From the UHGV virus genome UHGV-0126502: DNA of 37,604 nucleotides; one strand, 5' to 3'. The notes below the pieces were generated by a model. It was not told the origin of the DNA, did not search any database, and saw only the letters and a program-made list of their open reading frames with translations. Position numbers and translations under genes: made by a program. Below, piece after piece: positions 30,386 through 30,778 of the stretch. This stretch comes from a virus. Each line of letters starts with the position of its first letter. Within the stretch, counting starts at the first letter, position 1.

Positions 30386-30452
30386 TATTTCTTATAACAA
30401 AGGCTGGCTTAAGAAAATAGTTATCCAAACCAGCCTACCGCAATACTAAAAA

Positions 30453-30722
30453 TTAAAATTCATTGAATTTAAAAAGACATTTCCCTATTGGATTGCCATA
30501 GTCTCTACATGCCGAAATGCTGTCCCATACAGGCTGAGCCAAACACCCAAGAAAGAACCCAATAAGCGCAAAAATTATAATTTTGGGAAGAACACGATCC
30601 TTAGGACCTTCTTCACGTTCGAGCCATGCGCCACCAGCCCGAACTATTCTCCCTAAAATATAAAGAATGGGGAAAGCAATAATACCTATCAATGAAAGTA
30701 TTCCGATACCAAAGCTAAACAC
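30453..30722 (-). CDS. Small two-helix membrane protein, opposite strand (moron)
   Basis: GTG start with strong AAGGAG RBS; 89 aa with two hydrophobic helices (GIGILSLIGIIAFPILYIL; IIIFALIGFFLGCL); AT-rich island flanked by hairpins. Confidence 0.55.
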   Translation of the reverse strand: MFSFGIGILSLIGIIAFPILYILGRIVRAGGAWLEREEGPKDRVLPKIIIFALIGFFLGCLAQPVWDSISACRDYGNPIGKCLFKFNEF

Positions 30723-30778
30723 CGCCGTCTCCTTGTTTATTTACGCCTACATAACCATATATCACACAAGGTTATTTT

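Follow-up and report, generated by a model that had tools for sequence, protein, structure and literature searches.

Prophages encode many small membrane proteins, most of them unannotated, and the small number studied so far govern the entry of phages into the lysogen. Morons are described as genes that are present in only some relatives of a phage, deviate in GC content, carry transcription signals of their own and are expressed from the repressed prophage (PMC3594210). The first described moron product, gp15 of phage HK97, is a YebO-related inner-membrane protein of superinfection exclusion, encoded by a gene with deviating GC and its own transcription signals, and it has been proposed to block DNA entry when made from the prophage (PMC3594210). 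Imm of phage T4 and SieA of phage P22 are also inner-membrane proteins, and they block the injection of phage DNA (PMC11436027; PMC10883804). Here we describe a gene for an 89-amino-acid (89-aa) membrane protein on the minus strand of the virus genome UHGV-0126502 (37,604 nucleotides, the whole of which was analyzed and is called the window below), located in an AT-rich island of 393 bp between the genes of an Nmad5-family protein and of a family A DNA polymerase. As a whole, the best explanation seems to be a moron that would be expressed in the lysogen and whose product would exclude superinfecting phages at the inner membrane, with a probability of about 0.4. That the gene is accessory moron cargo is likely, because its GC content is foreign, it has its own ribosome-binding site (RBS) and terminator, it runs opposite to its neighbors, it sits in a cargo slot and its homologs are scattered single genes. 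The chances that the product protects the cell envelope in some way appear slightly better than even, and superinfection exclusion specifically, which comes from weighing the contexts described below, would be a tentative assignment.

The protein resembles HK97 gp15 in being a small inner-membrane protein encoded by an insertion of deviating GC content inside a phage operon, but the two show no sequence relationship and no YebO-type Pfam match was found. While gp15 has one transmembrane (TM) segment, the protein described here has two, followed by a conserved periplasmic tail with a C-x9-C pattern. Relatives of gp15 are confined to the Enterobacteriaceae (PMC3594210), in contrast to the family of the small protein, which spans Gammaproteobacteria, Betaproteobacteria and SAR324. 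With T4 Imm and P22 SieA it would share the proposed site and mode of action. Imm, with ~83 aa and two predicted TM segments, is also of similar size. However, there is no match to the Pfam superinfection-immunity family, Imm is the product of an early gene of a virulent phage, and SieA is larger; we know of no cysteine pair or loop motif of the kind described below in either protein. By sequence (Pfam, PADLOC and PHROG), the small protein does not belong to any of the known superinfection-exclusion families YebO/gp15, T4 Imm, SieA, Cor, Llp and Sie2009. The lambda bor and lom genes are similar in another way, since the E. coli, Pantoea and several Pseudomonas prophage copies are likewise single opposite-strand genes of deviating composition at module boundaries (lysis genes/terminase, or between early genes). 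Virulence phenotypes are associated with Bor and Lom, which are located in the outer membrane or are lipoproteins, whereas the small protein is predicted to be an inner-membrane hairpin. A small membrane protein on a prophage moron is already a familiar kind of object; what is new is a sizeable conserved family with sharp motifs that lies outside the profile libraries used, save for a weak PHROG match, and the partly unexplained association of this family with type I secretion loci.

The cargo slot beside the DNA polymerase

The chromosome of E. coli NCTC9022 matches the region at 99.9% identity, within a prophage adjoining yfhL/shoB. This prophage has genes for a tyrosine integrase, a LexA-like repressor, a complete lambda-type lysis cassette, and the head and tail. 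A related polymerase region was found in 159 of 5,426 complete E. coli genomes. The cassette is present in 32 of these 159 prophages, always with at least 99% identity and always in the same context, and the other 127 have the same polymerase without the small gene. The slot itself (29147-30778) extends from an Enc34-type single-stranded DNA-binding protein (SSB) to the polymerase and could be compared in phage vB_EcoM-606R2 (locus L001) and in loci L013 to L016. In L013 it holds Nmad5 and an unrelated 229-aa soluble protein encoded on the minus strand; in L014, L015 and vB_EcoM-606R2, a minus-strand membrane protein of 209 or 199 aa, rich in Lys, Ile and Asn and with hydrophobic segments; and in L016, a BRO-N protein. 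With the exception of BRO-N (Pfam), none of the alternative cargos matches Pfam or PADLOC. Since the sister elements hold other genes here and homology resumes at the polymerase ATG (the megablast match to vB_EcoM-606R2 starts exactly there, at position 30779), the island is one of several mutually exclusive cargos in a hotspot. The cargo hotspots of P2/P4-like prophages and satellites are alike in their fixed slot, conserved flanks and mutually exclusive cargos in close relatives, but they belong to another phage lineage and their slot is not the one between SSB/Nmad5 and the polymerase; the alternative cargos found here also have no PADLOC defense match.

The base composition of the island is different from that of its surroundings, with a GC content of 38.2% against 50.5% across the whole window; only 1.05% of the 393-bp segments have an equal or lower value. 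At the third codon positions of the 89-aa open reading frame (ORF), GC decreases to 30%. The island and its two neighbors have the following features (coordinates of the window).

30386..30778, no strand: whole cassette, AT-rich mobile cargo, with the Nmad5 stop codon and the polymerase ATG as edges
30453..30722, minus strand: coding sequence of the small membrane protein, 89 aa, 270 bp, from the program-made ORF list; RefSeq hypothetical protein WP_000490740.1
30720-30722, minus strand: start codon GTG of the small gene
30453-30455, minus strand: stop codon TAA of the small gene
30729-30734, minus strand: Shine-Dalgarno sequence AAGGAG, spacer of 6 nt to the GTG, read from the sequence
30391..30437, minus strand: hairpin resembling an intrinsic terminator, stem AGGCUGGUUU/AAGCCAGCCU, then UUUGUUAU, from an inverted-repeat search
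30723..30778, no strand: divergent intergenic region of 56 bp, from the small gene to the DNA polymerase start
29717..30385, plus strand: Nmad5-family protein, upstream neighbor (Pfam PF18757, E 2.7e-55)
30779..32842, plus strand: family A DNA polymerase, downstream neighbor, divergent from the small gene (ORF list, RefSeq)

The GTG start is well supported, because an ortholog in a Serratia prophage remnant (see below) has an ATG at the aligned position (MFYFGVG versus MFSFGIG). A preliminary description of this DNA had reported the 89-aa minus-strand ORF with its GTG and strong AAGGAG RBS, its place on the opposite strand just upstream of the polymerase, and its AT-rich flanks, and all of this agrees with the ORF list, the sequence, RefSeq and the GC values given above. 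Of the flanking hairpins that it also mentioned, the downstream one is there and looks like a terminator, whereas upstream we found just one weak inverted repeat (ATAACC/GGTTAT, 6-bp arms; ATAACC-N13-GGTTAT, 30751-30775) that overlaps the polymerase RBS.

The arms of the downstream hairpin are at 30401-30410 and 30427-30436, 3' of the stop codon of the small gene, and the minus-strand tract that follows the stem is TTTGTTAT. The RNA fold of the 70-nt stretch 30386-30455, with the hairpin inside, has -21 kcal/mol (z = -3.06), and 0 of 200 shuffles were as stable. The consensus terminator scan did not call it because the loop is long. On the plus strand there is no T-run after the stem, so that it would serve as a terminator for the small gene only, and read-through of the early operon from Nmad5 into the polymerase is not obviously blocked. 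The Serratia ortholog has a GC-rich hairpin of its own after the stop codon. Three of the properties by which morons are recognized were therefore found in this gene, i.e., presence in some close relatives at the same position, deviating base composition and a terminator of its own, in the form of the minus-strand hairpin and U-tract.

In E. coli as well as in Serratia, the small gene and the DNA polymerase gene run divergently with spacers of 54-56 bp, and this location might suggest a helper of replication in the lytic cycle, for example, a membrane anchor of the replisome as with phi29 p16.7 and p1. This is highly improbable. The many related E. coli prophages that keep the polymerase without the small gene, the location of other members of the family next to terminase, lysis, tail, integrase or secretion genes, and a transcription opposite to that of the flanking early (replication) operon all argue against it, and the distribution of the gene largely refutes a replication role. 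The preliminary description had reckoned with such a role coming to light through homologs; among these, only the Serratia ortholog adjoins a polymerase.

According to a study of 2025, Dhillonvirus phages can evade the Tmn defense system through one missense change in nmad5 (PMC11846954), and the Nmad5 neighbor may be relevant to defense sensing, with no link to the small gene. Nmad5 does not belong to the cassette, and a functional coupling between the two was considered and rejected, as Nmad5 occurs with another minus-strand gene in L013 and the Serratia copies have no Nmad5. The same prophage carries another opposite-strand cargo inside its replication module, a BstA-family abortive-infection protein (33583-34515, minus strand; PADLOC PDLC02356, E 1.4e-115) that is annotated as hypothetical in RefSeq.

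The small protein and its family

The small ORF is a real gene under purifying selection and not an open frame that arose by chance. Between two Pseudomonas copies that are 87% identical, the ratio of non-synonymous to synonymous change (dN/dS) was 0.083 (32.5 synonymous and 13.5 non-synonymous differences), and a second Pseudomonas pair gave 0.057. An exhaustive HMMER search of 1.84 billion cluster representatives recovered 121 at E<=1e-3 and 37 at E<=1e-10, mostly of ~85-95 aa and with alignments spanning most of their length, i.e., a family of ~120 clusters counted at 50% identity. This type of search was needed to reveal the family because those seeded by words gave few proteins: the k-mer-seeded search found only near-identical E. 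coli proteins with the single sequence and only 13 proteins with a profile of 65 sequences. Neither the 89-aa protein nor its 65 relatives had a significant match in Pfam, NCBIfam or PADLOC. In Pfam, all matches of the 89-aa protein had E >= 0.14, and the relatives gave scattered weak matches to unrelated membrane families. The sole PHROG family matched was phrog_8574, of unknown function, and this weakly and from six relatives, leaving aside single members that hit holin PHROGs non-significantly (E 0.02-0.03). A profile search of the PDB sequences gave only noise (E>=0.15), tblastn gave nothing among 50,697 GenBank phage records with E<=10 allowed, and we found no record of the accession WP_000490740.1 in the literature.

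The product is very likely a real membrane protein. The 19-residue Kyte-Doolittle mean reaches 2.44 over residues 5-24 and 2.40 over residues 44-62, which confirms the two hydrophobic helices of the preliminary description. Four parts can be distinguished along the chain.

30651-30719, minus strand: TM1, ~aa 2-24, from hydropathy
30582-30650, minus strand: basic loop, predicted cytoplasmic, aa 25-47, from the charge distribution of the family
30525-30581, minus strand: TM2, aa 48-66, with the motif G55xxxG59 and Q63
30456-30524, minus strand: predicted periplasmic tail, aa 67-89, with C72 (30507-30509) and C82 (30477-30479)

Across the family, the mean number of Lys plus Arg is 5.1 in the loop, 0.14 at the N-terminus and 2.4 in the C-terminal tail. 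By the positive-inside rule, the loop should be cytoplasmic and both termini periplasmic, so that the product appears to be a small helical hairpin of the inner membrane with its N- and C-termini facing the periplasm. Alignment of 65 sequences showed G59, C72 and C82 to be invariant and G7, G55 and Q63 nearly so, with the consensus ...R..AW..R...PK(E/D)RV...GF..GS..QP.WD....C...G.....C, in which the basic loop has its own conserved motif (R28, A32-W33, R36, P40-K-[D/E]-R43). Every member has exactly two cysteines in the tail, and in 64 of 65 they are spaced as C-x9-C. An N-out/C-out topology would place this invariant pair in an oxidizing compartment, and C72 and C82 probably form a disulfide in the periplasmic tail. 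AlphaFold2, run on the same alignment, gave a confident model (mean pLDDT 87.3) with helices at residues 8-34, 44-74 and 79-88; the tail appears to be a short helix-turn-helix. The idea that the gene codes for a microcin precursor was rejected, since the protein has no double-glycine leader and shows the positive-inside charge pattern of an integral membrane protein.

A small hydrophobic protein of two helices with a GxxxG motif, which is known for helix packing and could here serve oligomerization, might also damage membranes, whether as a holin or antiholin, as an abortive-infection effector or as a type I toxin silenced by an antisense RNA. Two copies of the family (L059 and L038) are inside a lysis region, and the early transcription of the plus strand would be antisense to the gene. 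We consider it quite improbable. At ~10 kb from the small gene, the prophage is already equipped with a lambda-family holin, a GH24 endolysin and Rz/Rz1, and L059 likewise has a separate holin, with the family gene encoded on the opposite strand. The holin PHROG matches are those single, non-significant ones, and no Pfam holin family was matched by the protein or its relatives. An invariant periplasmic cysteine pair together with a conserved cytoplasmic loop is, to our knowledge, not a feature of known holins. Type I toxins are usually under 60 aa and have one TM helix. Rfam gave no match at E<=1 within 29600-31400, and nothing resembling a plus-strand promoter emerged from the scan of the island, although a novel RNA is still possible; the only antisense transcript to be expected is the read-through of the early operon toward the polymerase. 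It should also be noted that cryptic prophage remnants have kept the gene stably although no antidote is visible in them. Of the three functions offered by the preliminary description, the genomic context favors an accessory gene of the superinfection-exclusion type; a holin-like protein is not supported (complete lysis cassette elsewhere, predicted N-out/C-out topology with the cysteine pair, no significant holin-family match), nor is a type I toxin-antitoxin component (89 aa, two TM helices), and the antisense RNA that it proposed to search for on the plus strand did not appear in the Rfam and promoter searches just mentioned.

Genomic contexts of the relatives

The closest context is that of Serratia, where a copy 49-50% identical occupies the same slot between SSB and polymerase, with its own RBS and the same divergent layout; the spacer is 54 bp long and its sequence little conserved. 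The Serratia element (L007-L009, ~5600-11100), at a fixed chromosomal site by YCII/QueH/TonB genes, belongs to the same prophage lineage and is a remnant in decay. Of DUF2800 only the last 83 residues are left, the SSB is split, SNF2 is frameshifted or fragmentary and the polymerase is frameshifted in two of the three loci; the small gene is intact, and exactly the same small protein is recorded on 13 contigs. The window polymerase is 73% identical to that of the Serratia remnant, which carries Pfam DNA_pol_A, against 49-50% for the small proteins, so the small gene has diverged faster than its neighbor.

A degenerate DNA pattern, kept in frame and derived from the residues conserved in the family, was run against one genome per species (185,579 species). 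It gave 13 matches, of which 11 were true copies, in Pseudomonas, Castellaniella, Nitrosomonas, Herbaspirillum, Methylophilus, Roseateles and SAR324 (L022 and L027 were false positives). Among 2.9 million viral contigs (IMG/VR), this pattern matched 34 times, and all 34 copies were confirmed by the family hidden Markov model; representatives of these were annotated by hand. Many of the contexts of the family are modules of unrelated prophages, of Pantoea, Pseudomonas and others. In Pantoea ananatis, an opposite-strand copy is located between the lysis genes and the terminase of a lambdoid prophage, and in a lambda-like metagenomic contig the copy is found between large terminase and portal. 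In representatives of the viral contigs, the gene adjoins a phage metallopeptidase, a DUF2280 small terminase, a Terminase_6 large subunit and a DUF4055 portal, and further viral copies adjoin gpA-type terminases or Mu-like tail genes. The copies in L059 and L038 lie on the opposite strand between a holin/GH19 endolysin pair and a spanin-like gene, and the separate holin of L059 is a Phage_holin_3_1 gene. The family acts as a lone mobile gene, functional in a wide range of genetic backgrounds. We do not maintain that placement on the opposite strand is constant, as our tally of neighbor strands is too crude for this claim.

Some members are found in islands of other kinds. One is located between two tandem copies of a small integrative element (L003 425-13081), each with a helix-turn-helix (HTH) repressor, a DnaG/Toprim primase of ~1,040 aa and a tyrosine integrase; the cargos of the two copies differ, and one of them is Tox-SHH. 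Another is in an integrase island with AbiTii, and in SAR324 the family gene is directly followed by a Gabija-like pair that consists of an OLD-type AAA_15/TOPRIM ATPase and a UvrD helicase (L024 3767-7230, plus strand). Other non-phage neighbors are a RelE/HTH pair, a tyrosine integrase and a PIN protein.

The Pseudomonas prophage copies, in the gap that separates the end of the lysis cassette from the packaging genes, bear on another explanation, namely, that the protein has some other envelope role in lysogenic conversion or host physiology. It could modulate a conserved inner-membrane machine in stress tolerance or transport, as is common among small membrane proteins, or have a function like those of lambda bor and lom. 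Lambda bor is at the equivalent position. All the evidence for a moron applies to this explanation equally, and the conservation of both faces of the protein across distant hosts suggests a conserved host partner. We regard such a role as doubtful: no specific phenotype can be proposed from the data, and the defense and toxin-antitoxin neighbors in several islands lean toward a function in conflict.

In three independent lineages, the family gene is co-directional with and just downstream of type I secretion genes.

L011/L012 9464-9799 and 10001-10336: copies after a cluster of RTX adhesin, ABC transporter, membrane fusion protein (MFP), OEP and HlyC
L019 10001-10258: copy 33 nt after a gene for a 1281-aa RTX protein
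L017 10001-10276 and L018 2123-2398: copies placed 29 nt behind the gene of an ABC exporter that has the C39-peptidase cysteine motif at its N-terminus (GECGIACL); an MFP and a LuxR-type regulator are close by

This adjacency is more frequent than we would expect by chance and partly unexplained. It would be accounted for if the small protein gave immunity against a secreted toxin that targets membranes (microcin, bacteriocin, colicin or RTX type), with orphan copies in prophages and islands that would protect the lysogen against competitors' toxins and not against phages. Small two-TM inner-membrane proteins beside such exporters are typically immunity proteins of class II microcins (e.g., Cvi), and a conserved periplasmic Cys loop fits the recognition of something that arrives from the periplasm. 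The likeness is by description only, in one lineage directly after a C39-peptidase ABC exporter with an MFP nearby. However, just 3 of ~20 distinct contexts have secretion genes, and most copies are solitary in prophages, far from exporters. In L017, no toxin precursor with a double-glycine leader was seen within 2900-4700 and 6800-12824, i.e., none beside the gene in the stretches examined. The neighborhood typical of microcin immunity, a precursor with an exporter composed of a peptidase-containing ABC transporter (PCAT) and an MFP, is absent from the window and from most relatives; the E. coli prophage has neither an exporter nor a toxin gene. Toxin immunity seems an unlikely explanation.

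Proposed superinfection exclusion and its weight

Superinfection exclusion by a moron product, the reading that we prefer, can be put as a sequence of steps. A temperate E. coli phage would have received the moron on the opposite strand of its early (replication) operon, and the gene would be expressed from the repressed prophage. During lytic growth, the early transcription of the plus strand, antisense across the small gene, would damp it, which would make a simple switch between the lysogenic and lytic states. In the lysogen, the membrane hairpin might bind a conserved component of the inner membrane or the DNA-translocation channel of the incoming phage; binding to a membrane partner appears to be the most economical mechanism, given that both faces are conserved and TM2 has a GxxxG motif. 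The genomes of superinfecting phages would in this way be kept from crossing the cytoplasmic membrane, as with HK97 gp15, T4 Imm and P22 SieA. Expression in the lysogen, the binding partner and the exclusion phenotype are steps that we infer only. A protection of the lysogen at the cytoplasmic membrane is suggested by the cargo hotspot, the presence of BstA in the same prophage and the defense or toxin-antitoxin neighbors of the relatives.

Several observations weigh against this proposal. Any phenotype is deduced from context, no homolog has a known function, and expression of the gene in the lysogen is assumed. The consensus scan found no sigma-70-like promoter upstream of the small gene. 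By manual search, a candidate -10 (TATATT, 30785-30790, minus strand) could be located, which is weak and has no good -35; the promoter should lie within 30723..30778 or just inside the 5' end of the polymerase gene. The databases are of little help, with no match of the 89-aa protein in PADLOC, Pfam or NCBIfam and a sole, weak PHROG match to a family of unknown function. Opposite orientation is not general either, since our crude automated tally counted one or more opposite-strand neighbors in only 15 of the 22 clusters that could be evaluated. The retention of the small gene in the Serratia remnants may be explained by its small mutational target alone. Conservation of both faces over Gammaproteobacteria, Betaproteobacteria and SAR324 is unusual for exclusion proteins, which tend to be narrow and to evolve fast, while it fits the binding to a conserved host machine. 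Finally, the three lineages beside type I secretion genes (RTX or PCAT) point toward toxin immunity or secretion and away from phage exclusion.

If the link with type I secretion proves genuine, phage exclusion and immunity to bacteriocins could meet in this family. It is possible, if rather doubtful, that we are dealing with an undescribed membrane immunity family of single two-TM genes, widely distributed over prophages, integrative elements and secretion loci of Gammaproteobacteria and Betaproteobacteria, whose products would occupy a conserved inner-membrane machine on which phage genomes and imported toxins both depend to cross the membrane; such a cross-protective protein would guard against both phages and bacteriocins. 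A single ORF of 270 bp is cheap to test, and G55, G59, Q63, C72, C82 and the loop motif are residues open to such tests. The gene is found in uropathogenic and livestock E. coli and could affect the host range of phages used in therapy.

Some other regions of the window appear to be variable as well. The alternative occupants of the slot between SSB/Nmad5 and the polymerase are as uncharacterized as the small gene. The position after the polymerase seems to be another variable slot: in vB_EcoM-606R2 (L001 8129-8890, plus strand) and in one Serratia remnant (L008 7052-7813, minus strand), it is occupied by the gene of a TIR-like (CAP12/PCTIR) protein, and in the window ANR, DUF7446 and VRR-NUC genes are found there instead. 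Other stretches of low GC content (<=40% in 393-bp segments) are at 2392-3027, 21918-22737 and 25348-25842 of the window. The minimum, 32%, is reached near 22,000, between the gene of a 139-aa hypothetical protein and a DUF5906 primase-like gene, and these three stretches may be further morons or regulatory regions.

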